A DNA stretch of 64,000 nucleotides. Source: an uncultured Bacteriovoracaceae bacterium. Its GTDB lineage: Bacteria > Bdellovibrionota > Bacteriovoracia > Bacteriovoracales > Bacteriovoracaceae. Below, in pieces: positions 1-44,195 of this stretch; position 1 is the stretch's first letter; every line of letters starts with the position of its first letter. The stretch is taken from contig CAXGUD010000005.1 of NCBI GenBank assembly GCA_964012805.1, positions 1-64,000 on the forward strand, given 5' to 3'. Both the position numbers and the translations under genes were made by a program. Below the pieces are notes generated by a model, which worked only from the letters and a program-made list of their open reading frames with translations, was not told where the DNA came from and searched no databases.

Positions 1-3000
1 TTCCTCTTTTAATGAACAAGAAAAAGTCAATTTCTGAAGATCTATATCTTCATCTCCTCCCTTAGTGGGATTATTGGGCCTTATTTTTTTTAAATCCGCT
101 GTTAAAGTAGAGTTATCATTGCTATTGATATCAATAATTGCCTCATTTTCATTAATAGTTTGATCATCAATATCAGCAAGTATTGGTGCCCTATTTGAAT
201 TCTTCACAATAACAGAGAATGTTTCTGAATCTTTAGAATCAACCATCGTCCCATTATTATTTATTTTTCCTCCATCATCAGCTGTAATGGTGAATTCATA
301 ATCTCCCGCTTGGAAAAAATCTGGTTTCCAGTTCATTTTTCCATTACTATTATTAAAAGAAAGACCTCTTAAAGAAGAACATTCTTTATTACCATCTAAT
401 TTTTTGTTAATAGTTTCATCATAAAAACATTTATAGGTTAATACTTCCAAATCGATATCTTTATCCCCATTACTTGTTTTATCATTAGCATCCACTTCTT
501 TTATACTTTGATTTTCTTTAGTTTCTTGATTATCTATAGATATTAAATCAGGGGCCCTATTTATGTTTTCTACTTCAATTGTAAAGACTTTGCTTGACTT
601 TAGAGGAATAGGATCATCATCGACGGCAACAATTTTAAGTTCATATAAACCTGATTGAGTATAATCAGGAACCCATTTTATTTTTCCCGTTTTAACTTCA
701 AAGTTAAGACCTTTTATTTTGGAACAATCTTCTCCTTTATTAGTTTTATCAACAATACCATCGGACTTTTTATCATAAAGGCAACTATAAGTAATATTTT
801 GAAGATCTATATCTTCGTCTATTTTCTTAGGTCCAGTTTTACCTGGTGTTTTAATTCTGGCTTGTTCTATGGGAACAATAAGTTTGGAAATATCATTAGG
901 GTCAATAAGACCTAATTCTTCCATTTCCTTAATTTTTTGATTTTCAATTTTGGATAGATTCGGAGGTCTATTGACATTTTTGACAACAACGTTAAATTCT
1001 TGAGAGCTGGATTTAGGATCTTCAGCATCGTTATCATTTGCCGTGATTTTAAAGACATATTTCCCAGAATGAAAAAAGTCCGTATTCCATTTTAAAACAC
1101 CTTTCTTTTGATCAAAAATCATCCCCCTAATTTTTGTATCACAAGGGATAAATGCTGATTCTTTTTCCTCTTTTAATGAACAAGAAAAAGTCAATTTCTG
1201 AAGATCTATATCTTCATCTTCTCCCTTAGTGGGATTATTAGGCCTCACTTTTTTTATATCCACTGAAAGACTTGATTCATCATTTCCATCAGCATCTATA
1301 ATCATTTCATTTTCATATATGATTTGATCATTAATCTTTGCAAGTTTTGGAGATCTATTAATATTTTTGACCTTTATAGAAAATATTTCAGAGTCTTTCG
1401 AATCAATAACAGCACCATTAACATTTATTTTTCCTCCATCTGATGCAATAAGAGTAAATTCATAGTTTCCTGATTGAAAATAATCTGGTTTCCAATCCAT
1501 TTGTCCATTTTTAGAGTTAAATGATATTCCTCTTAAAGCGGAACACTCTTTATCACCGTCTAATTTTTCATTGATTGAAGTATCATAAAAGCAACTGTAA
1601 ATTAGAGGTTCTTGATCTATATCGATGTCACTTCTACTATTTTCATCATTAGCATCTACCAATTTAATTTTCTGATTTTCATTGATATCTTGATTGGCAA
1701 TATTTATTAATTTTGGAGCTCGATTAACATTTTCAACTTCTATGTTAAAAATCTTTTCATCCTTCATTTGGACAGGATCATTGTCTAATCCAATTATTTT
1801 AAATTCATAAATACCAGACTGAGTATAGTTAGGTTTCCATTTCATTTGTCCAAGAGATGAGTCAAATAGTAATCCTTTAATTTGTGAACAAGGGTTGTCT
1901 AGCACTTTATTATCAATAATTTTATCAAAAAAGCATTCATAGTTAAGAGGCTGAAGGTCGACATCTTCATCTTCACCCTTAGCTCGACTGACATCTTCTT
2001 TCTTTTCTTTCCTTGCGACTTTAATATCCGTTAATAATACTGAAATATCAGAAGCATTAATCAAGCTAATGTCGCTATTTTCTTTAATTTTTTGATTCGA
2101 TATTTCTCTTAGTTTAGGAGGTCTATTTACATTATTAACAGTAATACTAAAACTAGAAGAATTAGAGAGAGGGTTCTCTTCATCATTATCAGTGGCTGTT
2201 ACATTAAAACTATAAAGTCCTGACGTAAAAAAGTCTGTTTTCCAATTAATAACTCCTGTATTTTTATTAAATAAAAGGCCCCTCCCCCCTGACTGACAAT
2301 CGGTATACTTTTCGACGCTTCCTTCTTTTTTAAAAGAACAAGAATACACTATTTTTTGAAGATCTATATCTTCATCTTCGTCTTTTTTGGGGTTAGTTGG
2401 TCTTACTTGGTTAATATCAACAAGAAGATTTGATTTATCCGAAAGGTTTATTTCCTTAATATTGTCATTTTCATTAATTACCTGGTTGCTTACTTCTTTA
2501 ATCGAAGGTGCCCTATTTTTATTTTTTACATTAATACTGAATTCAACAGAGTCAATTGAAACCTTCTCTATTCCATTTACATCTTTTATATTTCCGCCAT
2601 CGGCGCCTGTTATTTTGAAAAAATATTTACCAGACTGAAAGAAGTCAGGTTTCCACTTTAATTTCCCAGTAACATCTGAGAATTCAAGGCCCCTAATATT
2701 TATACAACTTGTTTTTTTGGAACTATTCTTATTTTTATTGAAAAAACAAGAATAGTTTATTTTTTCTAAATCAATGTCTACATCACTTCCAGTTTCTTTA
2801 TCATTTATATCTACAAGTTTTATATCACTGTTTTCTTCAACCTCTTGATCATCGACATCCTGTAGTTCAGGACTTCTATTTACATTGACAACCTCAACTT
2901 TAAAAATTTTACTGTCAGTTAATGCCATAGGATCATTATCAGTTCCAATAACTTTAAACTCGTAGATGCCAGATTGTGTAAAATTTGGCTTCCAACTCAT

Positions 3001-6000
3001 TATTCCTTTAGTGACATCGAAAACAAGTCCCTCCAATTCCAAACATGATTGAGTACCAACTTTTTTATCAACTAATCTATCAAAGAAGCATGCGTATCTT
3101 ATTTTCTGTAAATCGATATCCTCATCATTTAACTTAGGCCCTGAACTGCCAGGTATAGTTTTTCTGGCAGCATCTAAATTTATCGATAATACGGCCACAT
3201 CATTTAGATCAACAGTACCTAGTTCAGTATTTTCATCTATTTTTTTATCTTCTATATCCTTAAGTTTTGGAGGTCTATTCACGTTATTGACAAAGACTTT
3301 AAAGGTAGTTTCGTCAGAAAGAGGATCTAACAAATCATTATCCGTGCCTATAATTTTAAATTCATAGGTACCAGAGTGAAAATAATCAGTACGCCATGAC
3401 ATTTCACCATTTTTACTATTAAATTTTAAACCTCTTAATTTTTCTGTACATTCATCAAATTTATTATTTAATTTTATCTTTAAATTTTTGAATAAACATT
3501 GATAGGTTATTTTTTGAAGGTCCATATCCTCATCTTCATCTTTTGAAGGGGCAATGGGCCTTATTTCTTTTAGATCTAGTGAGATATTCGATTCATCTTT
3601 GATATTTACTAATTTAATCGATTCATTTTCATTTATGTTCTGGTCGTTTATAATTATAAGTTTAGGTGGTCTGTTCACGTTTTTAACTTCTATTTTAAAG
3701 AAGGAAGATGATTGAGAATCAATTAATATTCCATCTTGGTTTTTAAATTTCCCCCCATCACTTGCCGTAATTTTGAATTCATAAATACCTTTTTGAAAAT
3801 AATCCGTTTTCCATACCAAACGTCCATTAGCAGTATCAAATTTGGCTCCTCTTAAATTCGAACACGATTTTCCTTTTTCAATTTTATTGTTCACATTTTC
3901 ATCAAACGAACATCTATAAATTAAGGCCTCTTGATCAATATCTTTATCATTTCCTGTATTTTTATCATTAGCATCAACAATCTCTATATTAGTATTTTCA
4001 TCAACGGTTTGATCTTTTATTTTGGTTATTTCAGGAGGCCTATTAACATTGTTTACAGTTAGCTCAAATATTTTGGAGTCACTTAGAGGTTCATTTTTAT
4101 CATTATCAGATGCAAAAATCTTAATTTCATATTTCCCTGATTGAGTAAAATCGGGTTTCCAATCAATATCAGCATTAGTACGATCAAATTTAAAGTTTCT
4201 AATTTTTTCACATTTCTCTTTTTTTACACTTCCATCTCCTTTTAAATCAAAAAAGCAGTCGTAAGTTAGTTTTTGTAAATCTACATCTTCATTTCTTTTC
4301 TTTGGACCACTCGTATTAGGAACAGTAACTCTAGCAAAGTTAATTTGTGTTGATAAAGAACTATAATCACCGATATCGGTAATCTTTATCCTTTTATTCT
4401 CATCTATGTTCTTATTTTCTATTTCTTTTATTATTGGAGGACGATTCACGTTAATAACGTTTACAAAAAAGTCCTTACTATCTGATAGTGGGTTTAGGTC
4501 ATCATTATCTGTAACTATAATTTTAAAATTGTAATTATTGGCCTGAAAATGATCTGTACTCCAATTTATTTCACCTGTATTAGCATTAAACTTAAAATTC
4601 CTTAAATTATCGGAACATTTTTTATAACCTACAAAAGAACCAAATTTAACGGTGCAAAAATAAGTCAATTTTTGTAAATCTATATCCTCATCATTTTCTT
4701 TAATGGGATTTTCTGGTCTGGCCAATTTTAAATCAAGAATTAAGTTGGAATTATCATCCAAATCAATTAGCTTAATTGACTCTGATTCCTTGATCGTTTG
4801 ATTTTCTATATCCGCCAAGGAAGGAGGTCTATTTACATTTTTTACTTCTACACTAAAAATATCATAAGAAATAGAAGGAGTTAATTCTCCATTTTTATTT
4901 TTAAATTCCCCCCCATCAGAACCAATAACCTTAAACTCATAAATCCCTGAAAGAAAGTAATCTGTTTTCCAATTGATCTGTCCTTTTTGTTCATCGAACT
5001 TTAGACCCCTTAAGCTCGAACAACTTCCACCTTCATCCTTTTCCTGTACATTTCCGTCAACCAACTTATCGTAAAAACATTTATAGCTTAATTTTTCTTT
5101 ATCTATATCAGTGTCATCACCCGTATTTTGATCATAAAAGTCTATCGAAGGCATCGAATCGTTTTCGTTTACTAACTTATTTTTTATATCAACAAGCTTA
5201 GGCCTTCTATTTACGTTTTTGACTTTAACTTTAAATATTTTATTCATTGATAAAGGTTTTGGATCATCGTCTATCGCAGTGATCTTAAACTCATAGGTTC
5301 CAGACTGATCATAATCAGGCGTCCAGTTAATTTGTCCTTTATCTGAATTAAAAGTCAAACCACTAATTCTTAAACAATCTACTCCGTTTTCCACCTTTTC
5401 ATCTGCCTTTAAATCATAAAGGCAGGTATAAGTTATCTTCTGTAAATCAATATCTTCATCCTCTCCCTTTGGACCATCCTTTAGCGCGACTGTTTTACGA
5501 GCTTCTTTTATATCTATTTTCAAAATTGAATTATCAGAAACGTCGACTGTATTAATTGCAATATTTTCATCGACCTCTTGATTTGGAATATCACTCAAGC
5601 TAGGAGGTCTGTTTACATTTTTAACGTTTATGCTAAAAACCTTTTCATCTAAGGATTCTATTAATTTATTTTCAATTTTATCAAATATTTTTCCACCATC
5701 AGATGCCTTTAATTTGAATTCGTAAGTACCAGAATGGAAATAATCCGTTTTCCACTCTAAGATCCCCTTTGTCTGATCAAACTTTAGTCCTCTAATTTCC
5801 TTACAATCTAAATTTTCAGCTACGTTATTGTCTTTTTTGTTATCGTAAAAACATGAATATGTGATTTTATCCAAATCTACATCTTCATCATCACTCTTAA
5901 CTGGATTTAAAGGTCTTATTAACGAAAGAGGTGATTTAATAACAGATGAATCATTAGCATCCACTTTCAACAAAGGGTCACTTTCTTTAATAACAAGGTC

Positions 6001-7720
6001 TTCTATTTCTGCTAAACTTGGTGGTCTATTTACATTATCTACTTTAATTTTTAATATCTTTTTATCCTCAAGGCTTTTTCCTGGCGCACCATCACTCGCA
6101 ACAATCATAAATTCATAAGTTCCAGATTGAAAAAAATCAGGAGTCCAATTAATTAGACCTTTATCACTATCAAAACTAAAACCTCTTAAATTCTTATCAT
6201 CGCATTTTTTGAAAGCATTTACTTTACCATCTATAATTTGATCAAAAAAACAGCTGTAGGTTATCTTTTGTAAGTCAATATCAAAATCCTTATTCTTACC
6301 AATTGGATAAGAGGAACCATCATTGAAGTCTATTTCTTTGATAGTGGTTCCTTCATCTACTTTTAAAATTTCTTCAAAATTAATTTTTTCACCCGAAGAA
6401 AAAGCAACAAGAAGTGGTGGCCTATTAAAATCCTTTACTTTTACTTTAAATGTCCTCTTATTTAACCCTAACTCCTTTGATTCATTTTTTCCGTCATCAG
6501 CTGTTATCGTAAAAACATAATCTCCAGACTGTCTATTATCAGGAACCCAATCCATTTCACCGGTATTTTCGTTAAATTTAAAATTATTCTCTTTACCGTT
6601 TAGCCCCGAACAATCTGTCTTTTTTGACAAGTTACCATTTGCTGAATTTTGATATTGGCAATTAAACGTCAAAACTTCTAAATCCCTATCAGAGTCAGGG
6701 TTTTTAAAAAGCTCTCCATTTTTACTTTTTAACAAAAGCGACTTATCGATTCTATCTTGATTGACTTTGACAAGACTTATATCATCGACATTAATAGGCT
6801 CCATCGTCTCTAGTTCATAAATAGTTTGATCTTTAATCTCACTTAGAAGAGGTTTGTGATTTTTATTACTTATTTTTACAATAAATTTAATTTCGTCTTT
6901 TAATGACCCATTTAATAAATCTCCATCATCCCCAATTATTTTAAATTCGTATGTTCCTTCCTGGAAATGGTCGGGTTCCCATTCAAACTGTCCGTTTAAA
7001 TTATTAAAGTCTAATTTCCCAATCCCAACATTATCAAATTCTTTTTTCCCTTCGACTTTTTTATTCGTTTCTCCGGTTTCACAAGAATAAAAACTATTTT
7101 CTTTTGATTTACTTTTTTTTCTATACCAACAAGAATAAATTATTCTATCAAAATCTTGGTCTTCATCATCTCCCTTTATTGAACGGCCAAAACCTAAATC
7201 TTTCAAATCTTCTTTAGGTACGCTCTTTCCTTCGAAATAATGTGGAATAGATATGTCATTAATGTCAATTGATATTTTTTTCTCTTCTTTTAAATTAAAT
7301 ATTATAGGCCCAGTTGATGTTTTTTTTACTTCCTTACCGCTAGAAAAGATAGCCAAGTTTGGTTTGTGATTATTCTTTTTTATTTCAATATATGAATAAA
7401 TTGACTTAGTTGATATTTTTTTGCCTTTGCTTTTATAACCCTCCCTAGGTCCATCTCTTGCCTCAATAACGACTTTATATTTTCCATACTGGTAAAAGTC
7501 AGGCTTCCAATTAAAAATTCCTGTATGAATATTAAACTCGAAATTTCTTAAAGCACCACATCTTTTTTCCTTTTTAACCTCATCATCCTTCCAAGAATTT
7601 TTTCCGATTACTTTATTCTCAATTGCATTTTCCATTTCAACTGGCAATTTCTCATAAAAGCATTCATAAAAGACTTTGTCTCCATCTTCATCGTATTGGT
7701 AATTTTTTTTATCTTCTTCT
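1..7720 (-). repeat. Coding tandem repeat array of ~120-140 aa domains within the giant ORF
   Basis: 19 N(R/H)xP linker motifs near 190, 555, 965, 1352, 1720, 2122, 2512, 2875, 3275, 3672, 4040, 4442, 4828, 5207, 5610, 6027, 6422, 6858, 7367. Confidence 0.9.
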
Positions 7721-9033
7721 GGTAGGTCCAAGAAAGAATTTTCTTCATTTTTCTCTTTTTCTTCTATTTCTAACTGCCTTTTATCTTCAAGGATCTTTAT
7801 ATCTTTTTTGGATTTTTTAGAAACCTCTAACTTTTTCGCTTCATAGTTATTGGTCCGGATATTTAAATTATCAATTCTCTCTTTTAAGTCTAATAAGTAA
7901 TAATTAAAAATATATATTTCATTTTGAATAATGATTTTTGTTCTTCTTATTTCTACAAGGCTTCTTTTTAAATCTGATAATGTATTCCCTTCTTTATCTT
8001 TCTCCTTTTCTATATCTAAACTCCAATTTATTTCTCCATCGCTATTAAGAAACTTATCAACCAAATTATTTCTTTTTTCCTCTCCTTTTCTTCTATAAAC
8101 TGACTTCAAGTTATCTATTTTCTTTCTAATTTCCAATTCTTTAGAGCTATTTAAAATTAACTTATCATTAAGATCTTTAATACGATCTTTGTATTTTTTT
8201 AATAAGGATTCTTCTTTATTTTTTTTGTATAGGTTAAATTCATTTTTCGTTTTAACACTTTTACTGTTTATTTTTTTATTTAGGATAGAAAAATATGTTG
8301 TTCTTTTAGATTCAATTTCAAGCCTCATTTCCTTTTTTGATTTAACGTATTCATTTCTTTCTTCTCTTTTTTGTCTTAATTTTTTAATTTCTGACTTTAA
8401 ATCTTTTGTTAAATCACTAAACTTTAATTTTTCACTCCTATAATTTATTAATTCCTCATTAAACTTCTCTTTTAAAATCAAATAAAGAGTTTTCAGTTTT
8501 TTTAGTTCCTCCTCCTTTATTTCTATTTCAGATTCTAAATCTTTTGTTTTTTCCTTATCATTGTCATCTTCAATTAAGCTAAACTCTTTTTTTAACCTAT
8601 CTAATATTTTATTTTTCTCATTTATTTTTTTGTACTCATTAATTCGCTGTTTATTTAAAACGAGGTACTTTTTTCTAGATTCAGTCAACCTAGAAGAATA
8701 TTTACTTTTTATATTTTTTATTTTCTCTTTTGATTTTTTGATTTGAAGATCCAACGATAATATTTTATCGCTTATTTCTTTTCTTTTAATTTCCACTCCA
8801 TCTAGTTCATTTTTAGCTTTAATCTCCTCTTTTGATATTATTAAACTACCTTCCAATTCCTTTTCTATTTTTTCTTTTTCTCTTTGATCTTCTCTGTTTT
8901 TTTGTTGGTAGGTTTTTAAATTTGGTTTAGCTTCTTTTGGTAACGCCATTAAAAAAATGAAAAAGGTGACAATCACTATTTTACTAAATGAGTCCACCTT
9001 TAAAAGAAAGTTTATTTTTCCTAGATTATTCAT
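1..9033 (-). CDS. Giant (>3011 aa, 3' end outside window) exported/membrane-anchored protein with coiled coil and about 20 tandem cadherin/Ig-like repeats; putative adhesin or surface fibre
   Basis: Not in ORF track, consistent with no in-frame stop in the window. Manual translation from ATG at 9033 gives MNNLGKINFLLKVDSFSKIVIVTFFIFLMALPKEAKP. The same frame reads GGDEDIDLQKLTFSCSLKEE at positions 60..1. Repeated motif NRPP...DxDIDxQKxTYxC...C...W(K/T)(P/T)DYFQSGxYEFKIxAxD about every 390 nt. Confidence 0.92.
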   Translation of the reverse strand, partial: MNNLGKINFLLKVDSFSKIVIVTFFIFLMALPKEAKPNLKTYQQKNREDQREKEKIEKELEGSLIISKEEIKAKNELDGVEIKRKEISDKILSLDLQIKKSKEKIKNIKSKYSSRLTESRKKYLVLNKQRINEYKKINEKNKILDRLKKEFSLIEDDNDKEKTKDLESEIEIKEEELKKLKTLYLILKEKFNEELINYRSEKLKFSDLTKDLKSEIKKLRQKREERNEYVKSKKEMRLEIESKRTTYFSILNKKINSKSVKTKNEFNLYKKNKEESLLKKYKDRIKDLNDKLILNSSKELEIRKKIDNLKSVYRRKGEEKRNNLVDKFLNSDGEINWSLDIEKEKDKEGNTLSDLKRSLVEIRRTKIIIQNEIYIFNYYLLDLKERIDNLNIRTNNYEAKKLEVSKKSKKDIKILEDKRQLEIEEKEKNEENSFLDLPEEDKKNYQYDEDGDKVFYECFYEKLPVEMENAIENKVIGKNSWKDDEVKKEKRCGALRNFEFNIHTGIFNWKPDFYQYGKYKVVIEARDGPREGYKSKGKKISTKSIYSYIEIKKNNHKPNLAIFSSGKEVKKTSTGPIIFNLKEEKKISIDINDISIPHYFEGKSVPKEDLKDLGFGRSIKGDDEDQDFDRIIYSCWYRKKSKSKENSFYSCETGETNKKVEGKKEFDNVGIGKLDFNNLNGQFEWEPDHFQEGTYEFKIIGDDGDLLNGSLKDEIKFIVKISNKNHKPLLSEIKDQTIYELETMEPINVDDISLVKVNQDRIDKSLLLKSKNGELFKNPDSDRDLEVLTFNCQYQNSANGNLSKKTDCSGLNGKENNFKFNENTGEMDWVPDNRQSGDYVFTITADDGKNESKELGLNKRTFKVKVKDFNRPPLLVAFSSGEKINFEEILKVDEGTTIKEIDFNDGSSYPIGKNKDFDIDLQKITYSCFFDQIIDGKVNAFKKCDDKNLRGFSFDSDKGLINWTPDFFQSGTYEFMIVASDGAPGKSLEDKKILKIKVDNVNRPPSLAEIEDLVIKESDPLLKVDANDSSVIKSPLSLIRPLNPVKSDDEDVDLDKITYSCFYDNKKDNNVAENLDCKEIRGLKFDQTKGILEWKTDYFHSGTYEFKLKASDGGKIFDKIENKLIESLDEKVFSINVKNVNRPPSLSDIPNQEVDENIAINTVDVSDNSILKIDIKEARKTVALKDGPKGEDEDIDLQKITYTCLYDLKADEKVENGVDCLRISGLTFNSDKGQINWTPDYDQSGTYEFKITAIDDDPKPLSMNKIFKVKVKNVNRRPKLVDIKNKLVNENDSMPSIDFYDQNTGDDTDIDKEKLSYKCFYDKLVDGNVQEKDEGGSCSSLRGLKFDEQKGQINWKTDYFLSGIYEFKVIGSDGGEFKNKNGELTPSISYDIFSVEVKNVNRPPSLADIENQTIKESESIKLIDLDDNSNLILDLKLARPENPIKENDEDIDLQKLTYFCTVKFGSFVGYKKCSDNLRNFKFNANTGEINWSTDHFQANNYNFKIIVTDNDDLNPLSDSKDFFVNVINVNRPPIIKEIENKNIDENKRIKITDIGDYSSLSTQINFARVTVPNTSGPKKRNEDVDLQKLTYDCFFDLKGDGSVKKEKCEKIRNFKFDRTNADIDWKPDFTQSGKYEIKIFASDNDKNEPLSDSKIFELTVNNVNRPPEITKIKDQTVDENTNIEIVDANDKNTGNDKDIDQEALIYRCSFDENVNNKIEKGKSCSNLRGAKFDTANGRLVWKTDYFQKGIYEFKITASDGGKFKNQDGILIDSQSSSFFKIEVKNVNRPPKLIIINDQNINENESIKLVNIKDESNISLDLKEIRPIAPSKDEDEDMDLQKITYQCLFKNLKIKLNNKFDECTEKLRGLKFNSKNGEMSWRTDYFHSGTYEFKIIGTDNDLLDPLSDETTFKVFVNNVNRPPKLKDIEDKKIDENTELGTVDLNDVAVLSINLDAARKTIPGSSGPKLNDEDIDLQKIRYACFFDRLVDKKVGTQSCLELEGLVFDVTKGIMSWKPNFTQSGIYEFKVIGTDNDPMALTDSKIFKVEVVNVNRSPELQDVDDQEVEENSDIKLVDINDKETGSDVDIDLEKINYSCFFNKNKNSSKKTSCINIRGLEFSDVTGKLKWKPDFFQSGKYFFKITGADGGNIKDVNGIEKVSIDSVEFSINVKNKNRAPSIKEVSNQVINENDNIKEINLSDKSNLLVDINQVRPTNPKKDEDEDIDLQKIVYSCSFKKEGSVEKYTDCQSGGRGLLFNKNTGVINWKTDFFTSGLYSFNVTATDNDEENPLSNSSSFSITVNNVNRPPKLREISNQKIKENSDISLINASDISVLLTDIKVARKEKKEDVSRAKGEDEDVDLQPLNYECFFDKIIDNKVLDNPCSQIKGLLFDSSLGQMKWKPNYTQSGIYEFKIIGLDNDPVQMKDEKIFNIEVENVNRAPKLINIANQDINENQKIKLVDANDENSRSDIDIDQEPLIYSCFYDTSINEKLDGDKECSALRGISFNSKNGQMDWKPDYFQSGNYEFTLIASDGGKINVNGAVIDSKDSEIFSIKVKNINRSPKLAKINDQIIYENEMIIDADGNDESSLSVDIKKVRPNNPTKGEDEDIDLQKLTFSCSLKEEKESAFIPCDTKIRGMIFDQKKGVLKWNTDFFHSGKYVFKITANDNDAEDPKSSSQEFNVVVKNVNRPPNLSKIENQKIKEMEELGLIDPNDISKLIVPIEQARIKTPGKTGPKKIDEDIDLQNITYSCLYDKKSDGIVDKTNKGEDCSKIKGLNFEVKTGKIKWVPDYTQSGLYELKIVAVDDDPIPLKSSKVFTIEVENINRAPDLISIDNQETKENQSIKEVDANDKTSNGDKDIDLEVLTYKCFYDETINKKLDGNKECSSLRGLSFNNSNGKMNWKPDFFQAGDYEFTITADDGGKINNNGTMVDSKDSETFSVIVKNSNRAPILADIDDQTINENEAIIDINSNDNSTLTADLKKIRPNNPTKGGDEDIDLQKLTFSCSLKEE

Positions 9034-9074: not shown

Positions 9075-10112
9075 TTAATTATTTCCTTTTTTATTATTAA
9101 GAAGATTCCCTCCTGCCAAAGCAGAGTCCTTAACACTGTTAGTATTATTTTCAGGTTCACTTGAATTTCCATCTTCAATAGTTATTTTAAAACTTACAAC
9201 ATCTTTGTTTTTTCCGTCAGTCCCCTCGATAGAAAAATTATACACACCTGATATCATTGACCCTGGTTCATTAAGAATCCAAGTTAATTTTCCATTATCA
9301 TTATCAAAATAAAAATTCACATCACCTATGTCCTCACAACCTCCGCTTTCTAGCATTCCTGGTTCCCTGTTTTCACTTGTAAACTTGCATGAATAAATTA
9401 TTTTGTCTCCATTTCTATCTAAATCCTTCTGAGTTTTTTCATCATTAATATCTATTTCAATATCTTCTAAATCAATTTCAGATACACTTAAATCACTGAC
9501 CTTCGTTAAAGAAGGTTCTAAGTCTTGGTATTTTATTTTTTTTCTCTTTAAATTATTAGTGCTGGATTTCTCTAATTTTTCCTGATTTGATGAGGAATTT
9601 TCTTCTTTATTTGTTTTCTTATTTAATGTGGTTACATTAATTTTTTCCTTTTTTGTTTTTTTACTTCCCACCTCTTTTAATATTTCTTCTTTTACTTTTC
9701 TTCTTTTTTCTTTTTCAATTTCATTATCTGATTCAATTCCTTTTTTTCTATTTCTTAATAATTTTCCTTTTTTAAATCCAGGCACAGATGTTATTTTTCT
9801 AGAAGATTTATTTTCTGTAATTTTATTATTATTTTTTTTAGTTACTTTTTTGAAAAAACTCTTAACTGTTTTTGATATTCTTTTTTTTGTGACCTCTGGA
9901 TCATCAAGATCATTTTTATTTTGATTTATAGATTCATCACTAATTTCTTTTTGTTTTTTTAGTTTTGATAATTCTTCTTTGGACTTTTCTTTTGTTTTAA
10001 AATATTTAAGTATATCTACATCTGTATTTTTTACGACAACATAACCAGCCACTATCGTTAAAGAAGAAATAACTAGAGATAAGACAAGTTCTTTCATGAC
10101 TATATCAACCAA
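9075..10112 (-). CDS. N-terminally anchored Lys-rich protein with one C-terminal cadherin/Ig-like domain of the same type as the giant neighbour (start may be ATG 10097)
   Basis: TM segment LVLSLVISSLTIVAGYVVV, K/E-rich linker, then DLDRNGDKIIYSC...C...FDNDNGKLTW...SGVYNFSIEGTDG. Confidence 0.85.
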   Translation of the reverse strand: MVDIVMKELVLSLVISSLTIVAGYVVVKNTDVDILKYFKTKEKSKEELSKLKKQKEISDESINQNKNDLDDPEVTKKRISKTVKSFFKKVTKKNNNKITENKSSRKITSVPGFKKGKLLRNRKKGIESDNEIEKEKRRKVKEEILKEVGSKKTKKEKINVTTLNKKTNKEENSSSNQEKLEKSSTNNLKRKKIKYQDLEPSLTKVSDLSVSEIDLEDIEIDINDEKTQKDLDRNGDKIIYSCKFTSENREPGMLESGGCEDIGDVNFYFDNDNGKLTWILNEPGSMISGVYNFSIEGTDGKNKDVVSFKITIEDGNSSEPENNTNSVKDSALAGGNLLNNKKGNN

Positions 10113-10428: not shown

Positions 10429-10788
10429 TTATTCTAGATTTACTTTTTGGTAATTACTTTTAATTCTTAAAACCTTTAACTCATCACTCATCAGCTCCTC
10501 TCTTGCTAGAGATAGTTGTTTAGAAATAAAATCATTATTCTTTTTAGTTCTTCCAGCCTTGCTAACTTCAGAATGCTCTAAAGCGGTGAAAAGATAATCT
10601 GTTGCTCTTAAAAGTTTTGAAAGCCTTGCTTCTTGAAAAGAACTTTGCCTATCAATTAGTGCCCATTTAACAAGAAAAAAGTTTGCTATTATTGTTATGA
10701 AAATTACTAAAAGGCCCATGCCCATGCTTTCATTGTATTTTCTTTTGATTAACTCCACCATTTCAGACTCCTCCCTAAGCCGAGACAA
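10429..10788 (-). CDS. Hypothetical single-TM protein
   Basis: 119 aa ORF directly downstream of the M23 gene, one hydrophobic helix. Confidence 0.6.
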   Translation of the reverse strand: MSRLREESEMVELIKRKYNESMGMGLLVIFITIIANFFLVKWALIDRQSSFQEARLSKLLRATDYLFTALEHSEVSKAGRTKKNNDFISKQLSLAREELMSDELKVLRIKSNYQKVNLE

Positions 10789-10821
10789 TATTAAGCTTTA
10801 ACGGTCTAGCTTTCCTATGTT

Positions 10822-12162
10822 TTAAAGATCCTCTTTTTTCTTTTTCTCATTAGTTTTTTTTGCCAAAAGAACTGCTTCCTGCCTTTCGGGAAGGAATTTC
10901 CATACCTCTTTTGCGAAACTTTTGTAGGAAATTAGGTTTTCTTTTTTTATTTTTTTTAATTGAGGAAACTTTTTACCAAGAGGATCTACATAACGACCTC
11001 CCTGATAAAACTCAAAATGAAGATGAGGCCCTGTTGAAAGCCCTGTGCTTCCCACATAACCAATAACCTGCCCTTGTTTTACCTTGCGACCTCTTCTTAC
11101 GCTTGGATGGAATTTCGATAAATGCTTGTAAGCTGTCTGGTAAACAGAATTGTGTCTGATCTTGATCGTTTTACCACCCCATTTTGAATAATGCTTCCTG
11201 GTTACTCTGCCATCTCCAACAGCAAAGATCGGGGTTCCTTTTGGAGCAGCGTAGTCAACACCGTAGTGCGGCCTTCTAATTTTTAAAATTGGATGAAACC
11301 TTCTTCTTGTAAACCTTGAAGTTATCCGGCCAAAGCGAAGAGGACTTTTTAAAAATTTCTTTTTTAAGCTTTTTCCCTCAAGGTCATAATACTCGCCACC
11401 TTTCCCCTTCGGAAACCTCACTGCTTTATGATAAGTGTTCCCATTTTTATACTCAGCGGCTAAAATATGGCCCCACGAAACTCTTTTACCTCCTGCCCAT
11501 TTTTCCTCTACAATGATTCTCCATGAATCTACTGGCAGTACTTCCCTATTGAAATCAATTTCCCACGCAAAGATTTGGCTTAATTTTTCAATCACCGCTG
11601 GATCTAAGCCAGCTTTAACTGCCGAGTTCCAAAGACTTGCCTCCACAACACCATTAAACTTAGTTACCTTTGTTGTAATAGGTAAGTTCTTTTTTCTTGC
11701 CTTCCATTCTCCTTTTTCACCTTTTTCTACGACGACGCGCTCCATCCAAGATAAAAAAATCTCAAGAGATAAAAACTCTTTTAAAGGATAGGACCTCTCT
11801 TTTTTTTGAAGGACCGTATTTATTTGTAATTTTGAAAAGTTTATAAATGGTTTTACGGCTTTAATAATTTGTAAAATATCTTGATAAGAGAAATTCATTT
11901 CCTCCAAAGTTTCTGCAAAATTTGAATTTTTCCGGATTTTCTTTTCTACGAAAAACTCACCGAGTCCGAGGCGGCTGTCTATACTTCTTTTAAGCCTCTT
12001 ACCTTTCAATTTGCTTTGACTAGTTGCCTGATCCCCCTGATTGACTCCTTTGAATCCTTTCTCTTTTTGACACGAAACAAAAATAAAACAAAAAAACAGA
12101 CTTAGAATAAGAGGAGTTTCTTTCAAAAACAGGGGCGCAAAATTTGATCTTTTAGTAATCAT
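10822..12162 (-). CDS. M23 family peptidoglycan DD-endopeptidase (MepM/Csd3-like), probable lipoprotein
   Basis: HYGVDY (HxxxD) and GPHLHFE (HxH) motifs, AWEIDF central domain, lipobox-like FVSC. Confidence 0.92.
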   Translation of the reverse strand: MITKRSNFAPLFLKETPLILSLFFCFIFVSCQKEKGFKGVNQGDQATSQSKLKGKRLKRSIDSRLGLGEFFVEKKIRKNSNFAETLEEMNFSYQDILQIIKAVKPFINFSKLQINTVLQKKERSYPLKEFLSLEIFLSWMERVVVEKGEKGEWKARKKNLPITTKVTKFNGVVEASLWNSAVKAGLDPAVIEKLSQIFAWEIDFNREVLPVDSWRIIVEEKWAGGKRVSWGHILAAEYKNGNTYHKAVRFPKGKGGEYYDLEGKSLKKKFLKSPLRFGRITSRFTRRRFHPILKIRRPHYGVDYAAPKGTPIFAVGDGRVTRKHYSKWGGKTIKIRHNSVYQTAYKHLSKFHPSVRRGRKVKQGQVIGYVGSTGLSTGPHLHFEFYQGGRYVDPLGKKFPQLKKIKKENLISYKSFAKEVWKFLPERQEAVLLAKKTNEKKKKEDL

Positions 12163-16153: not shown

Positions 16154-16597
16154 TTATGGTGATAGATGGTGGTGGCCTTTTTTACAGCCTAAACACTCTA
16201 CCCAGGCTTCACTTTCATCTTCATAAAACTCCTTTTTCCACAAAGGCACTCTATTTTTGACTTCATCAATTATATACTGACAAGCTTTAAAAGCTTCTTT
16301 ACGATGCTTTGAAGTGACCAATATCCACACTGCCCGTTCTCCAATTTTTAGTTGGCCATAACGGTGGACACATACAGCGTCCTTGATAGGAAAAAGCTTG
16401 AAAGCTTCTTCTACAACTTTTTTTCCCTCCAAAACTGCCATTTCTTCATACACCTGGTACTCTAGAAGGGTTACTTTTTTACCTTTATTAATATTTCTTA
16501 CTCTTCCTTCAAATGAGACTGCTCCTCCGGCCTCCGGGTTCTCTAATGTCGTTTTATTTATTATATCTTCTAAAGAGTCCTCTTGTAATAAAAACAT
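16154..16597 (-). CDS. moaE: Molybdopterin synthase catalytic subunit
   Basis: GGAVSFEGRVRN, HRYG, HRKEAF, PLWKKE. Confidence 0.95.
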   Translation of the reverse strand: MFLLQEDSLEDIINKTTLENPEAGGAVSFEGRVRNINKGKKVTLLEYQVYEEMAVLEGKKVVEEAFKLFPIKDAVCVHRYGQLKIGERAVWILVTSKHRKEAFKACQYIIDEVKNRVPLWKKEFYEDESEAWVECLGCKKGHHHLSP

Positions 16598-16599
16598 AA

Positions 16600-16845
16600 C
16601 TAACCCCCTGCCACTGGCGGTATAAAAACAAGGGTCTCACCACCATCAAGAAGAGTATCCCAATCTCTATAAGTTTCATTAATTGCGACTTTCACATAAG
16701 TTTTATCAAGATGAAAGTGATAACGCTCATTCAACTCATCAAAAATTTGCGAGGCTTTTTTTGGTGAATCTATAGATAGAATTTCTTGATCCTTTTTAGC
16801 TGCATCCCTTAGAGAAGAAAAATATTTTATCTTTATAGACTTCAT
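16600..16845 (-). CDS. moaD: Molybdopterin synthase sulfur carrier
   Basis: 81 aa ubiquitin-like protein ending PPVAGG. Confidence 0.95.
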   Translation of the reverse strand: MKSIKIKYFSSLRDAAKKDQEILSIDSPKKASQIFDELNERYHFHLDKTYVKVAINETYRDWDTLLDGGETLVFIPPVAGG

Positions 16846-17903
16846 TGATAATTCCCTTCGTTTTCAAAAACGTTAGTCTGAGTTTTAGACTTTGCTTCTT
16901 TATAACCTTCAGGTGTATTAATGTTTTGAAGGACCAATTTAGAGTTAACTTCAAGCACTTCATGGGGCACATTCATTAAAGCTTTTCTAGGACAAACAAT
17001 ACCCAAGGAAAGATACTGATGAAATGCTCTAACTGCACCAGGTTCATAAATTGTACATAGAGGCTCGGACCATCCCTTTTCAGGATTTTTAAAACAGGTT
17101 GCTTTTTTAAAATGGTTACGACCTTTTATAAGCTGGTCTAAGTTTTCTTTAGATATGTAAGGAAGATCGCATGCAAGTACTAACCATGAAGCTTCAGGAT
17201 GTTTGTGAAAAGCGGTTAAGAGTCCTCCTAGAGGACCCATATTTAAAAATTTATCAGGGAGACAATGATCTTTCATTCCGTTAAGATAGGCTAAATTTGA
17301 TTGTTCTTCTCTTATACTCATATAGGTTTTTTCACAAACATCATCTAATAAATCATAGACGTGCTGTCCTTGGGCCTTTCCAAAATAATCCAATGATCCT
17401 TTATCTTTTTTCATTCTTTGGCTTTTCCCACCAACAAGGGCCAGGCCATAAAGAGGCCTAGAGGTCACGGATTTATTAATGTAATCAAAAAGAAAGTCAC
17501 TTATTTTATCTATATCTGAATTTTGAAAGACCGGTTTATTTGATATAAATTGGTCTTTATTCGAATAGCTCAAAAAGCCGATAACATCGTCCCAATAAGG
17601 TGACTTTTTGGCTGCATCAAGACAGGCTTCTGATTCCAAAAAAACAATTTTTGGAATACCTACAAGATAATTATTTTGAAAGATAAACCCATCTGGTTCA
17701 AGATGAAAAAGGGCACTAAGATAATCCTTGTAAGTACTCTCTTTTGTTGAAGACAGGTTTTGACCATCACAAAACTCTATATCCAACCCAAACTTATCTC
17801 TAATAGAACGTTTTAAAGCACTGGGAAGACCACTATTTAACCAAGCTCCTTTTCTGCATAATGAAACTTGTGGGACTTGATTATTTACAGGTTTATTTTT
17901 CAT
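16842..17903 (-). CDS. mobA: Molybdenum cofactor guanylyltransferase with N-terminal extension
   Basis: LVGGKSQRMKKDK, GPLGG, LACDLP, EPLC, NINTP. Confidence 0.85.
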   Translation of the reverse strand: MKNKPVNNQVPQVSLCRKGAWLNSGLPSALKRSIRDKFGLDIEFCDGQNLSSTKESTYKDYLSALFHLEPDGFIFQNNYLVGIPKIVFLESEACLDAAKKSPYWDDVIGFLSYSNKDQFISNKPVFQNSDIDKISDFLFDYINKSVTSRPLYGLALVGGKSQRMKKDKGSLDYFGKAQGQHVYDLLDDVCEKTYMSIREEQSNLAYLNGMKDHCLPDKFLNMGPLGGLLTAFHKHPEASWLVLACDLPYISKENLDQLIKGRNHFKKATCFKNPEKGWSEPLCTIYEPGAVRAFHQYLSLGIVCPRKALMNVPHEVLEVNSKLVLQNINTPEGYKEAKSKTQTNVFENEGNYQ

Positions 17904-18388
17904 ATATTTCCTTCTTTGACAGTTCGTTTTCCACCAGACTTTTCAATAAGCCTGGCCTCTTTTATAACCATGTTATGAGTTATGGCCTTACACATATCAT
18001 AAATAGTGAGTGCCGCTACGGTTACTCCAGTTAACGCTTCCATTTCAACACCCGTCTTCCCTGATATTTTTACACAGCAACGAATCGATATAAGTTGAAG
18101 CTCTTCTATGATTTTAATCTCAAAGTCACATGCTTCAATTATCAGCGGGTGGCAAAAAGGAATAATATCGCTTGTTTTTTTAACGGCCATAGTTCCTGCA
18201 GTTATAGCTGTGTGAAAAACAGGTCCTTTTTTCGTTTTAATATCTCCATTAGAAAGCTGCTCAAAAATGAGTGGGTCACACTTAATTTCACAACTAGCTG
18301 TGGCCAACCTGTGAGTGACACCTTTCTCCGAAACGTCTACCATTTTGGGATTATTTTTTTCATCAATATGATTAAGTTTGTGTGTCAT
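17900..18388 (-). CDS. moaC: Cyclic pyranopterin monophosphate synthase
   Basis: MVDVSEK, IPFCHP, TGVEMEALT, YDMCKA, KSGG. Confidence 0.96.
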   Translation of the reverse strand: MTHKLNHIDEKNNPKMVDVSEKGVTHRLATASCEIKCDPLIFEQLSNGDIKTKKGPVFHTAITAGTMAVKKTSDIIPFCHPLIIEACDFEIKIIEELQLISIRCCVKISGKTGVEMEALTGVTVAALTIYDMCKAITHNMVIKEARLIEKSGGKRTVKEGNI

Positions 18389-18396
18389 CTTTATTC

Positions 18397-19368
18397 CTAT
18401 CCGCCTATCTGGTGCATTGCTTGACCCACAGTATCGATACGGTCAAAAGGTTTTAGCTTTATAGTTTGCTTTAACGTTTTTAAAAAATCTTCAGCTTTTA
18501 ACCCCCGTAAACTCACTCCTTGATCAATAAATAGACAAGGTCTTAAGGCTCCATCTGCTCCAAGCCTTAAACGAGAACAATGACCGCAAAAAGGGCGGGA
18601 TTCAGAAGCAATGAAACCTATCTCTCCACCCTTGGACAGGAAAAAGTTAAAAGATGTAGAGTCTTTGGGCATTTTCTTATCTTTAAGTTGGTTTTTTAAT
18701 TTAAGCCTTTCAATAATTTCACCAGCACTAACAAAATGTTTTTCAAAATAATGATTTGCAACTCCAATTCTCATTAATTCCAAAAAGCGGACTTCAATCC
18801 CAGTTTTTTGTGCAAACTCAACAAACTTATCCAACTCCTCTTCATTGTCATTAATTCCCTTAAGAAGAACTGCATTAACCTTGACTTTAAAACCCATCGA
18901 GTGGGCCTTCACTATCGAGTGATAAACACGAGCAAAGGTATCTGTCTGAGTTATTTTTTCAAAATTTTCTTTATTCAAACTATCAAGGCTAATATTTAAA
19001 TACTTAAGAGAAGTACCTTTTAAAAACTCTAGCTCTCTTTCTAAATGAATCCCATTTGTTGTTAAGCCAAACTTAGAAAGAGGAAGTTTATCAAGCCCAT
19101 TAACAATTTTTCTAAAGTCCGGTCTTAAAAGAGGTTCGCCTCCAGTTAATCGGATTTCATCAATGCCATAAACCACGAGTTTAGAAGATATTTCACAAAG
19201 TTCCTCTCCCGAAACCCAACTCTTCTTGGCCATAAACTCTTTTTCATCAGGCATGCAATAAAGGCAATTCATATTACAAGCATCGAGGAGAGAGATTCTT
19301 AACTTATGAATCAAGCGGTTGTGTGAGTCGACAAGTTTAAAATTAGAATATGGAAAAGGTAGCCCCAT
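18397..19368 (-). CDS. moaA: GTP 3',8-cyclase (radical SAM)
   Basis: CNMNCLYC, LTGGEP, C-terminal CxxC-RLR...PC cluster, terminal IGG. Confidence 0.96.
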   Translation of the reverse strand: MGLPFPYSNFKLVDSHNRLIHKLRISLLDACNMNCLYCMPDEKEFMAKKSWVSGEELCEISSKLVVYGIDEIRLTGGEPLLRPDFRKIVNGLDKLPLSKFGLTTNGIHLERELEFLKGTSLKYLNISLDSLNKENFEKITQTDTFARVYHSIVKAHSMGFKVKVNAVLLKGINDNEEELDKFVEFAQKTGIEVRFLELMRIGVANHYFEKHFVSAGEIIERLKLKNQLKDKKMPKDSTSFNFFLSKGGEIGFIASESRPFCGHCSRLRLGADGALRPCLFIDQGVSLRGLKAEDFLKTLKQTIKLKPFDRIDTVGQAMHQIGG

Positions 19369-20610
19369 TTAATCCCCGCCTTTTGCCCAACTGTAAAACA
19401 CGAAAGCTTCTCCACTAAAAAACTTTGCTCTTTCCCTAGGAAGCTCAATAAATCCGTCGCTTTTCGTTAGAGAAAAGTAATCACCAGAGCCATTTGTTTT
19501 TTGAGGAACTGCCGTTAGTTTTCCACTAAGCGGAGACCTTTCAATTGAAACAGGCAAATAAAAAGTTAGATTTTTAGAAAAACTAAAGTCTTCTTTTAGA
19601 ACAACCTTGTTCTCGGAGTCTTTAGTCCAAGAGTTTTCTATCAATGGACCTACATAACGCCTCAAGCAGATGATACAAGAAACAGGGTTTCCCGGAAGCC
19701 CGAAAACAAGAGTCCCCTTAGCAGATTTTCCAAACCACATTGGTTTTCCAGGCCTTTGCTTTATTTTATGAAATATCTTTTGAACTCCCAGGTCGTTTAG
19801 AATAGAGGGGACGTAATCATATTTTCCCTTCGATACGCCACCTGTTATAACTACCAGATCATAACTCTCCAAAGCCTCCTTAAATTTCTCAAAAAGAGTC
19901 TGTGGGTCATCTTTTAAATGGAAAATATCTACTTCCGTATGGCCTCGAAGCTCTAACTCAGCTTTTAAGGCATGGGTGTTCGACATCCTTATTTGATGCT
20001 CAAGAGGCTTATCTTTTACAGGTACAAGTTCATCACCAGTACTAATTAAAACTATTCTGGGCTTTTTTTGTATTAAAACATTCGCATACCCTTCAGAAGC
20101 CAATACACCTAAAACAGGTGAAGTAATGAGTGCTCCTTTTGATAGAAGAAGCTCTCCCTTCTTATAATCACTTCCCAATTTATGAATATTTTGCCCTTTT
20201 GAAAAAGAGTGTTCATCCTTAAGAATCACTTCTCTACCTTTTGAAGAAGGACTTCCACTATCCATAAAATGACAATGCTCATAAGGAATTACAGTATCAC
20301 ACCCAATAGGCAAAGGGGCTCCAGTCATGACTTCAAAACATTTATCTGAATCAGACAAAGTAAGGGCCCTAGAGCCGGCAGCTTGGATCCCCTCTGTAAT
20401 AAGTGGTTTTTTATCTTTTAAAGAGAGCCATGAGGAAGAGTTCAATGAAATTCCATCCATTGCCACTCGATTAAAAGGAGGTTGAGGCCTTTCTGCAAAG
20501 ATATCTTCAGCTAACACCTGACCGGCTGAATCTCCTAAAGAGACTCTCATTACATTTATTTGAAGTTTTTCTTTCGCTAAAAAACCTTGAGCTTCCTCTA
20601 CAGAAATCAT
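19369..20610 (-). CDS. moeA: Molybdopterin molybdotransferase
   Basis: PPFNRVAMDG, MTGAPLP, STGDEL, TGGVS, RPGKP, LPGNP. Confidence 0.96.
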   Translation of the reverse strand: MISVEEAQGFLAKEKLQINVMRVSLGDSAGQVLAEDIFAERPQPPFNRVAMDGISLNSSSWLSLKDKKPLITEGIQAAGSRALTLSDSDKCFEVMTGAPLPIGCDTVIPYEHCHFMDSGSPSSKGREVILKDEHSFSKGQNIHKLGSDYKKGELLLSKGALITSPVLGVLASEGYANVLIQKKPRIVLISTGDELVPVKDKPLEHQIRMSNTHALKAELELRGHTEVDIFHLKDDPQTLFEKFKEALESYDLVVITGGVSKGKYDYVPSILNDLGVQKIFHKIKQRPGKPMWFGKSAKGTLVFGLPGNPVSCIICLRRYVGPLIENSWTKDSENKVVLKEDFSFSKNLTFYLPVSIERSPLSGKLTAVPQKTNGSGDYFSLTKSDGFIELPRERAKFFSGEAFVFYSWAKGGD

Positions 20611-43345: not shown

Positions 43346-43391
43346 GTTTTATTATATATGACCTTTTAATTAATTTTTATAAAGGCTTAGT

Positions 43392-44195
43392 ATGTACGAT
43401 TCAAAACCATTATCAAACAATCGTGTTTTTATATATCACCTGTTGAAAAGAATGCTAAGATTTAATTGCCCCATGTCTGGTACTTTTCATTTCGATGTAA
43501 CAGATCTATACAATAAAATCAATGATCTTAAAAAAGAAGGATATTCAATTGGTTTAGTATCCTGCTTAGTTAAAGCAACAAGCTTATCTATAGAAAAATT
43601 TCCACGCATGAACAATAGGATATTCCATACATTGCTAGGAAAAAAAGAAGTTAGTTATGACTCCATAAATTGCGGTTTAGCCGCGACTAGAATTGACCCT
43701 CTAGGAGAGGAAGTAATTATTCCTATAATACTAAGAGGATCTAACAAATTATCGATTCAAGAAATTCACAATCAAATTAAAGAAAACAAAACATTACCTG
43801 TCGAAAAGCTTGAATCATATGAGTGGCTTCAAAAATCGAGAAGGCTACCTCGTTTTTTGATTCCGTTTGTCCATTATCTTTTTAGATCGAACCCCAAATT
43901 TTCTGCTAAAAACTCAAGTACTTATGCAATCTCATCAATTATGGAAAAAGACTCATCTCTAGTGAGCTCTCATTCGCCTGCAAATCAAACGACCTTTTTC
44001 CCTATAAGTTTAAAGGATCAGGCAATGGTACACAATGGTGAAGTGAAACCTAGAAAAGTTTTGGCAGTAACATTTTGCGTAGATCACTTTTTAGTTGATG
44101 GAATGGATGTTCAAAGATGCGGTAATTATTTAAAAAACTTTTTGGAAAACCCAAAAAATCTACTCAAAGAGTTTAATTTAGAAAAAACAAGTTAA
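43392..44195 (+). CDS. Stand-alone 2-oxoacid dehydrogenase E2-type acyltransferase catalytic domain
   Basis: FPRMN, C-terminal DHFLVDG (HxxxDG); no lipoyl or E3-binding domain. Confidence 0.82.
   Translation: MYDSKPLSNNRVFIYHLLKRMLRFNCPMSGTFHFDVTDLYNKINDLKKEGYSIGLVSCLVKATSLSIEKFPRMNNRIFHTLLGKKEVSYDSINCGLAATRIDPLGEEVIIPIILRGSNKLSIQEIHNQIKENKTLPVEKLESYEWLQKSRRLPRFLIPFVHYLFRSNPKFSAKNSSTYAISSIMEKDSSLVSSHSPANQTTFFPISLKDQAMVHNGEVKPRKVLAVTFCVDHFLVDGMDVQRCGNYLKNFLENPKNLLKEFNLEKTS

Follow-up and report, generated by a model that had tools for sequence, protein, structure and literature searches.

Giant Ca2+-stiffened adhesins with immunoglobulin-like (Ig-like) domains are well known as a class, which limits the surprise of any new member. 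Little is known of how marine Bdellovibrio-like bacteria reach particles or prey and keep hold of them, and the adhesins that have been described are mostly those of Bdellovibrio bacteriovorus. We have analysed the first 64,000 nucleotides (the window) of contig CAXGUD010000005.1 (C5) of an uncultured Bacteriovoracaceae bacterium (assembly GCA_964012805.1, here genome G000; 130 contigs, 4.47 Mb). The minus strand of 1..9033 carries the first 3,011 codons of a giant gene, which is open at the contig end and probably continues on the minus strand of contig C55 (22938→9325). We describe its sequence, domain order, repeat fold and repeat periodicity, and a two-gene arrangement that is conserved. 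Taken as a whole, the product is probably a giant non-fimbrial adhesin (about 7,800–8,200 amino acids, aa) of a flagellated marine Bacteriovoracaceae/Halobacteriovoraceae bacterium.

The nearest described proteins by sequence are the He_PIG or putative Ig proteins (PF05345, with Big_9 PF17963 and Cadherin_4 PF17803), which have the same NxxP, DxD, WxP and F-strand Asp pattern; ordinary members have no Cys pair and a shorter C-strand-to-E-strand segment (median 24 residues vs 38 in Cys-pair domains). The top structural match is Staphylococcus aureus SraP (PDB 4M00/4M03), at 14–18% identity. According to the available parts of the papers cited here and below, a single Ca2+ bound by each cadherin-like (CDHL) domain of SraP makes the stem stiff and projects the lectin (PMC4047093). 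SraP, a serine-rich glycoprotein of a Gram-positive species, has two CDHL domains and its lectin on their N-terminal side, whereas the giant has 35 or more modules, Cys pairs and a C-terminal head. Saccharophagus degradans CabC/CabD and Pseudoalteromonas BapP likewise come from marine Gram-negative bacteria and carry tandem cadherin-like/Big_9 repeats with DxD motifs, and BapP has a Sec signal and a Ca2+-dependent function in biofilms (PMC12153261). In length and module content, the giant is five times longer than BapP and differs by its Cys pairs and its multi-LamG/IPT/ricin head.

The RTX giant adhesins (SiiE, LapA, MpAFP/MpIBP) likewise combine a long Ca2+-stiffened Ig-like extender with a distal ligand-binding region, and expansion of their repeats breaks assemblies (PMC5380327, PMC6272769). 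Their GGxGxD motif occurs 0 times in the sequenced parts of both halves of the giant, the unsequenced gap being repeat copies. The MAT fibres of Bdellovibrio are likewise Bdellovibrionota surface fibres with a variable distal part (PMC10769870). They are, however, trimeric, beta-prism and phage-fibre-like, whereas the giant is a chain of tandem beta-sandwiches whose modelled repeat pair is monomeric; the S74 chaperone domain of one MAT subgroup had no Pfam match at E 0.01 in either half. The Omnitrophota giants, likewise assembly-broken open reading frames of a putative predator with LamG-type modules (bioRxiv 2023.11.21.568195, PMC10066038), exceed 30,000 aa and have many transmembrane helices and SecA-like domains, whereas here there is one hydrophobic segment and no SecA Pfam match. 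The features tested place the giant among the He_PIG/bacterial cadherin-like repeat proteins and set it apart from classical cadherins, RTX adhesins, MAT fibres and the Omnitrophota-type giants, and by analogy we infer a function akin to that of SraP, BapP or the RTX extenders.

The open frame and its probable continuation

The minus-strand frame 9033→1 runs for 3,011 codons from ATG 9033 with zero stops, while the remaining five frames hold 111–540 stops each; such a frame would arise by chance at the local base composition with a probability of about 1e-129. Window position 1 is also where contig C5 starts, so the assembly truncates the gene, and because the frame is open at the contig end it is missing from the list of stop-terminated open reading frames. 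An earlier, sequence-only reading of the window had proposed a hidden giant of more than 3000 aa. This proved correct, and the protein is in fact larger than claimed: it does not end near 3,000 aa, and its probable C-terminal half lies on C55. No stop lies inside 1..9033. Variants from four independent public runs fall at 34 listed positions within the frame (19 synonymous, 15 nonsynonymous, zero stop-creating), the listing leaving out 21 further variants, and no indel is listed. The runs covering the stretch with readable labels are marine or seawater metagenomes, and no RNA data set is listed among the runs.

On C55, the minus strand 22938→9325 is a 4,538-codon frame open at its 5′ side at the contig end, and C5 and C55 are the only contigs of the genome carrying the Cys-pair domain described below. 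No direct overlap of the two contig ends exists. Apart from a single difference, the first 70 bases of C55 are those of window 334→265. In run X7, a 9,420-nt contig agrees with window 729→265, again but for one difference; past 265 its alignment to the window is no better than that of a paralogue, with offsets that suit C55. The C5–C55 joint is also listed for runs X1 and X2. From these run contigs, window 265..804 (minus strand) appears to be a collapsed repeat that the gene contains in at least two near-identical copies, one of which directly precedes the C55 sequence. Depth over window 280–804 exceeds that of its neighbours (36 vs 13–15 in X1, 14.8 vs 4–6 in X5, about 11 vs 6–7 in X2), a weak hint at two or three copies, depths not being copy numbers. 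By repeat register, the full length would be 7,826 aa with one hidden triplet of domains, 8,214 aa with two and 7,438 aa with none, giving 35 Cys-pair domains in total with one triplet or 38 with two.

We regard it as well supported that the C55 frame continues the window gene, although the join is not closed. The alternative is that C55 carries a paralogous gene of its own, the window protein ending differently, or that bases 1–264 are an allelic branch (7,438 aa, gapless). It draws on the absence of a single contig linking window position 1 to C55, and on the orthologue of the C55 half in the congener G002, which has a different upstream part, so that such genes do shuffle. Yet C5 and C55 are both open at contig ends, in orientations and repeat registers that agree, a genome rated 100% complete yielded no further N-terminus or C-terminus, and the bridging X7 contig and the raised depth over 280–804 in X1, X2 and X5 argue for one gene; we consider the alternative quite improbable. 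Regarding flank synteny, a gene of the C5 flank adjoins the thioredoxin gene of the C55 flank in 2 of 8 relatives' loci (both of one genus), in another order, and the other 6 loci show no link between the two flanks.

This thioredoxin/DsbA-like gene (with a CPHC motif; C55 8164–9270, or L001:5165–6274, plus strand) lies convergent and directly after the 3′ end of the giant. The same arrangement is seen in the three genomes of the genus (G000, G001 and G002), while other genera have other neighbours there; its link to a Cys-rich giant may be chance.

Tandem cadherin-like domains with a cysteine pair

A profile scan detected 20 Cys-pair domains in the window: a diverged first domain (aa ~401–554; 7372..7833, minus strand), 18 complete He_PIG/cadherin-like domains of 121–170 aa (196..7371, minus strand; by Pfam, profile and motifs) and the first half of a 20th (1..195, minus strand), which is cut by the contig end and whose bases 1–45 are identical to 1165–1209. 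All 39 Cys of the window part sit in these domains, exactly two per complete domain. The sequence-only reading had counted about 20 such repeats, with acidic motifs, an NRxP linker and two Cys in each one that it translated; 19 complete domains and a cut 20th bear this out, and the features are near-invariant across the 18 regular domains (NxxP linker 18/18, DxDxD loop 18/18, F-strand xxD 17/18, two Cys 18/18). Over both halves of the protein, the 31 regular complete domains have DxDxD in 30, F-strand xxD in 28 and the A′-strand Glu in 26; NxxP is found in all 31, by construction of the domain split.

From aa ~1002 onwards the domains follow a higher-order period of three (A-B-C, about 388 aa), the types differing at two insertion sites. 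Domains three apart share an identity of 0.49 and those six apart one of 0.47, compared with 0.35–0.36 at other lags, which argues that the stalk grew via triplet duplication. The A-B-C typing rests on lagged identity because the repeat tree is poorly supported (3 of 26 branches well supported).

He_PIG (PF05345) scored 269.6 bits in the window half and 178.9 bits in aa 1–1400 of C55, both far over the cut-off of 24, as the sequence-only reading had anticipated; Cadherin and Big_9 matches in the window half were weaker. The classical cadherin EC domain (PF00028) reached a summed 56.9 bits against a cut-off of 28.8, with no individual stretch passing, and the tandem-95 repeat protein model (NF012211) stayed below its curated cut-off of 90, at 48.2 and 22.9 bits. 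Neighbours in the ESM Atlas were all He_PIG/Big_9 clusters, at 0.95.

AlphaFold2, run on one domain pair with 78 aligned sequences, returned two tandem all-beta sandwiches (predicted local distance difference test 96, predicted template modelling score 0.82), in agreement with the fold that had been proposed. Foldseek placed the SraP CDHL first (E 1.6e-10), followed by cadherin-23, protocadherin-15 and CELSR1, and the VIA wide structure search gave SraP CDHL at Z 11.2 (root-mean-square deviation 4.7, 178 aligned) and cadherin-23 at Z 10.8. A sequence search of solved structures found none closer than E 0.0017. In a classical cadherin junction, a DRE motif and a DxNDNxP linker together give three Ca2+. 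A DRE-like motif occurs in 0 of the 31 domains of both halves, and the linker is mostly NVNRxP. As there is no DRE, and NxNRxP stands in place of DxNDNxP, fewer than three Ca2+ per junction are likely; from the motifs and by analogy, one or two may be bound. Judged by its motifs, the repeat retains part of the classical cadherin ligand set and has lost the rest. Thus the proposed cadherin/He_PIG likeness holds for the He_PIG score, the fold and the acidic junction motifs and fails for the classical cadherin motif set.

The two Cys lie 7–19 residues apart, around an inserted loop, with the first in the model's third core strand. They are the sole invariant columns among 70 diverse domains, a partly circular result as the profile was built from Cys-pair domains. 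In a profile search of 1.84 billion proteins, of which the best 150 matches were analysed, the Cys-pair domain occurred in 31 of these 150 by one pattern and in 30 of 100 scorable by another. The distance from the DxD loop to the WxP strand has a median of 38 residues in 112 domains with two Cys and 24 in 380 without, and six of the domains measured had one Cys. The pair therefore accompanies an insertion of about 14 residues and most simply staples the inserted loop, via a predicted disulfide. The terminal strands are not linked, which makes a mechanical clamp less likely than stability to proteases, stability in folding or loop display. The disulfide stapling of a rod that had been suggested is accordingly half right: the pair is present in every complete domain, but it is placed around a loop and not on the load-bearing terminal strands. 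DsbB is present in the genome.

Candidate tether, tip and proposed function

The N-terminus of the giant (8935..9033, minus strand) is a basic and hydrophobic segment, either a Sec signal peptide or a signal anchor. Its residues 13–31 form the sole hydrophobic segment of the protein (best 19-residue Kyte-Doolittle mean 2.05), in line with the hydrophobic N-terminus noticed earlier, and the same segment is found in P0162 and L062. No lipobox Cys follows the signal, the first Cys being residue 458. A K/E-rich region of about 365 aa without Cys comes next (aa 36–400; 7834..8928, minus strand), which is probably helical and coiled-coil-like: K makes up 21% and E 15% of residues 36–440, which include 2 Pro and 5 Gly, and hydrophobic periodicity peaks at 3.6. 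Composition and periodicity thus fit the coiled-coil-like region of the sequence-only reading, with its boundary corrected to near aa 400. The region matched no Pfam family and had one homologue, in P0162. Within it, at window 7888–8043, two haplotypes (1 and 6 differences) were seen in runs X1 and X7.

Upstream of the giant, 41 bases before its ATG and on the same strand, lies a 340-aa gene (9075..10097). Its product has an N-terminal transmembrane segment, a basic low-complexity linker, one Cys-pair domain (9168–9524) and a short conserved tail. Among 185–590-aa proteins, five other full-length homologues were found (333–341 aa, 41–75% identity) that end at about the same place, with much stronger conservation in the domain and tail than in the linker. 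In the relative L062 (75% identical), a homologue of the 340-aa gene is again followed by the N-terminus of a giant; since the two-gene order is repeated there, the split is not an assembly error. The same layout forms the first ~320 residues of both fused giants of genome G003. We hypothesize that the 340-aa protein may tether the giant. The idea that the 340-aa protein completes the first domain by donor-strand complementation was considered and dropped, as the profile covers aa 401–554 as a whole domain. Farther upstream on the same strand, beyond some 330 AT-rich bases, are an M23/Csd3 peptidase gene and a gene for a 119-aa membrane protein with no Pfam family (10429–12162).

The C-terminal half on C55 begins with a partial and ten complete tandem Cys-pair domains, followed by an Ig-like module, four IPT/TIG alternating with LamG-fold modules, more Ig-like modules, three further Cys-pair domains, a weak chitobiase-C-terminal-like module, a classical LamG and a terminal LamG. 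In total it holds 13 complete Cys-pair domains and six LamG, plus IPT, ricin-type and crystallin-like modules and a hypervariable cysteine ladder; both halves of the protein together contain 129 Cys. The ricin-type trefoil (Pfam E 1e-7, over the cut-off) is inserted in the third LamG, and inside it C-x2-Y repeats run outward with an eight-residue period and back with a seven-residue one around a WW-bearing turn, which suggests a disulfide-laddered hairpin. The ladder is the least conserved region among the three congeners (36% per 100 residues vs 57–94% elsewhere, from aa 401, in G001). It is longer in G002, where it also carries a crystallin-like module that in G000 and G001 sits in the following LamG. 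The ladder is convincing only within the genus among 150 family genomes searched; it had no homologue at E 0.001 among 963 candidates, and its matches in the ESM Atlas were all under 0.9, leads only. The crystallin-like insert had no match among solved structures, and Pfam Crystall_3 (E 0.002) was under the cut-off. G002 also swaps the stalk beside the head for other modules: at its C110:26050 downward (L015), a motif at the contig end of the orthologue, which we take to resemble a serralysin/RTX C-terminal domain, precedes IPT, LamG and a lectin-like insert, with no Cys-pair stalk.

With no RTX motif, an N-terminal hydrophobic signal and 129 Cys, Sec export and periplasmic folding are favoured over type I secretion. 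The giant would be exported by Sec across the inner membrane, each Cys pair would be oxidised in the periplasm, pinning its ~14-residue loop onto the sandwich, and the folded chain would then exit through the type II secretion system. Outside, seawater Ca2+ at the acidic residues of the junctions (DxDxD loop, F-strand Asp, with the linker Asn) may stiffen a stalk of about 32–35 cadherin-like beta-sandwiches into a rod of ~150 nm, a length that assumes 4.5 nm per domain. The lectin-fold head (IPT, LamG, ricin-type, crystallin-like and Ig-like modules) could bind glycans on particles, biofilms or prey cells, and the helical N-terminal region, perhaps together with the 340-aa membrane-anchored protein, would retain the rod on the cell. 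Elongation of the stalk may proceed through duplication of three-domain blocks. The rod adhesin or fibre of the sequence-only reading is in part sustained, by the adhesin-like architecture and the lectin-fold modules of the C-terminal half.

Several observations weigh against this model. Dscam, titin and other Ig folds tie with the cadherins (VIA Z 10–11), so that cadherins are not singled out; the LamG and ricin matches establish folds, not sugar binding; an export or retention signal of known class was not identified, and type II secretion of a chain of ~870 kDa is assumed. Moreover, no contig spans the whole gene, the length of its gap coming from repeat register and depths, and matches occur in 9 of 61 relatives and 12 of 100 family genomes only. 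From this patchy occurrence, the giant is not a core predation factor.

The same patchiness bears on the possible, though somewhat unlikely, view that the giant is a dedicated prey-recognition fibre, in which the head and especially the cysteine ladder would choose the prey, adding a second system to that of the MAT trimers. The closest named relative (L042, 75% identity) is labelled Halobacteriovoraceae, a predatory family within Bdellovibrionota, and the ladder is the most variable part among the three congeners, as in the MAT logic of a conserved base and a variable tip (PMC10769870). A ladder convincing only in the genus fits this view poorly, and a variable tip would be equally expected for evasion of phages or grazers. 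Another alternative, which we hold to be unlikely, is a released matrix or coat protein, unretained after signal cleavage, that self-associates into a Ca2+-dependent mesh for aggregation, biofilm or shielding from phages and grazers. The absence of a C-terminal anchor, beta-barrel and lipobox is in its favour, as are the homophilic Ca2+-dependent binding of Saccharophagus CabD/CabC, as cited in PMC12153261, and the dimerisation of SraP CDHL1-2 (PMC4047093); relatives, on the other hand, have explicit tethers (lipobox-like in 18 of 25, signal-anchor-like in the G003 giants), and the order of stalk then lectin fits projection from a fixed base. Were the N-terminal segment an uncleaved anchor and the helical region a span of the periplasm, where disulfides would also be at home, the giant might instead be an inner-membrane-anchored periplasmic or envelope-spanning scaffold and not an external adhesin. 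This is extremely unlikely, as a rod of 30 or more domains far exceeds the width of the periplasm and heads of the LamG/ricin/IPT kind usually belong to extracellular proteins.

Within the preferred adhesin model, a bolder and doubtful extension is that such giants form a second class of Bdellovibrionota recognition fibres made from a phylum-typical disulfide-looped module. In this genus an ancestral one-piece design of membrane anchor, linker and repeats, like that of the relatives of 7,000–9,650 aa, would have been split into a small anchored "socket" and an 8,000-aa rod docking via its helical N-terminus, with the target set by the nested hypervariable tip (ladder within trefoil within LamG) and the movable crystallin-like modules. 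The locus offers separately expressible modules, namely the Cys-looped domain, the candidate two-gene tether and the hypervariable tip.

Distribution and surrounding genes

In surveys of Bdellovibrionota genomes, 39 of 401, spanning 11 families, gave a match to the single-domain profile at E 1e-12, and all 31 full-length domains at 18 loci from 17 matched or related genomes had at least two Cys. Lipobox-like N-termini were found in 18 of 25 Met-starting Cys-pair proteins vs 6 of 61 without the pair. Ten Cys-pair proteins that were looked up had no name or taxon on record. Genome G003, of a member of the same family, holds two tandem complete giants (C8:878891–929207), one of 9,650 aa with 50 domains and one of 7,032 aa with 27. 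Each of these domains has two Cys; both giants have signal-anchor-like N-termini, near-identical internal repeats and distal modules of other types. This pair adjoins helix-turn-helix regulators and an ssb gene. Elsewhere on the same contig (C8:445796–449322, L024) is a Cys-pair protein with an apparent frameshift into 218- and 950-aa frames and RCC1-like repeats at its end.

The N-terminal half of the giant and the 340-aa gene were not found in G001 and G002, both ~70% complete, with the queries used. Assembly breaks fall inside the giant gene in each of the genus's three genomes, so counts of such proteins will be too low. No match was found in a phage collection. A literature search covering main texts, with subscription papers mostly outside it, found nothing on the giant or, in Bdellovibrionota, on any He_PIG variant with a Cys pair; the main text of PMC12724312, in its available part, mentions neither cadherin nor Ig-like.

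Genome G000 encodes flagellins, with nine matches to the flagellin N-terminal domain, a type II secretion cluster (GspD, E, F and G over cut-offs) and a type IV pilus secretin. Other long or Cys-rich frames lie on its contigs C2, C4, C7, C23, C47 and C60, among them frames of 2,931, 2,924, 2,586 and 2,379 aa and others of 1,100–1,800 aa with 3–6% Cys. Elsewhere in the window, a molybdenum cofactor cluster (MoeA, MoaA, MoaC, MobA-like and MoaE) occupies 16154–20610 on the minus strand, and 40436–44195, with a GC content of 0.27–0.29 vs 0.33–0.36, holds a 969-aa frame and is possibly an acquired island.

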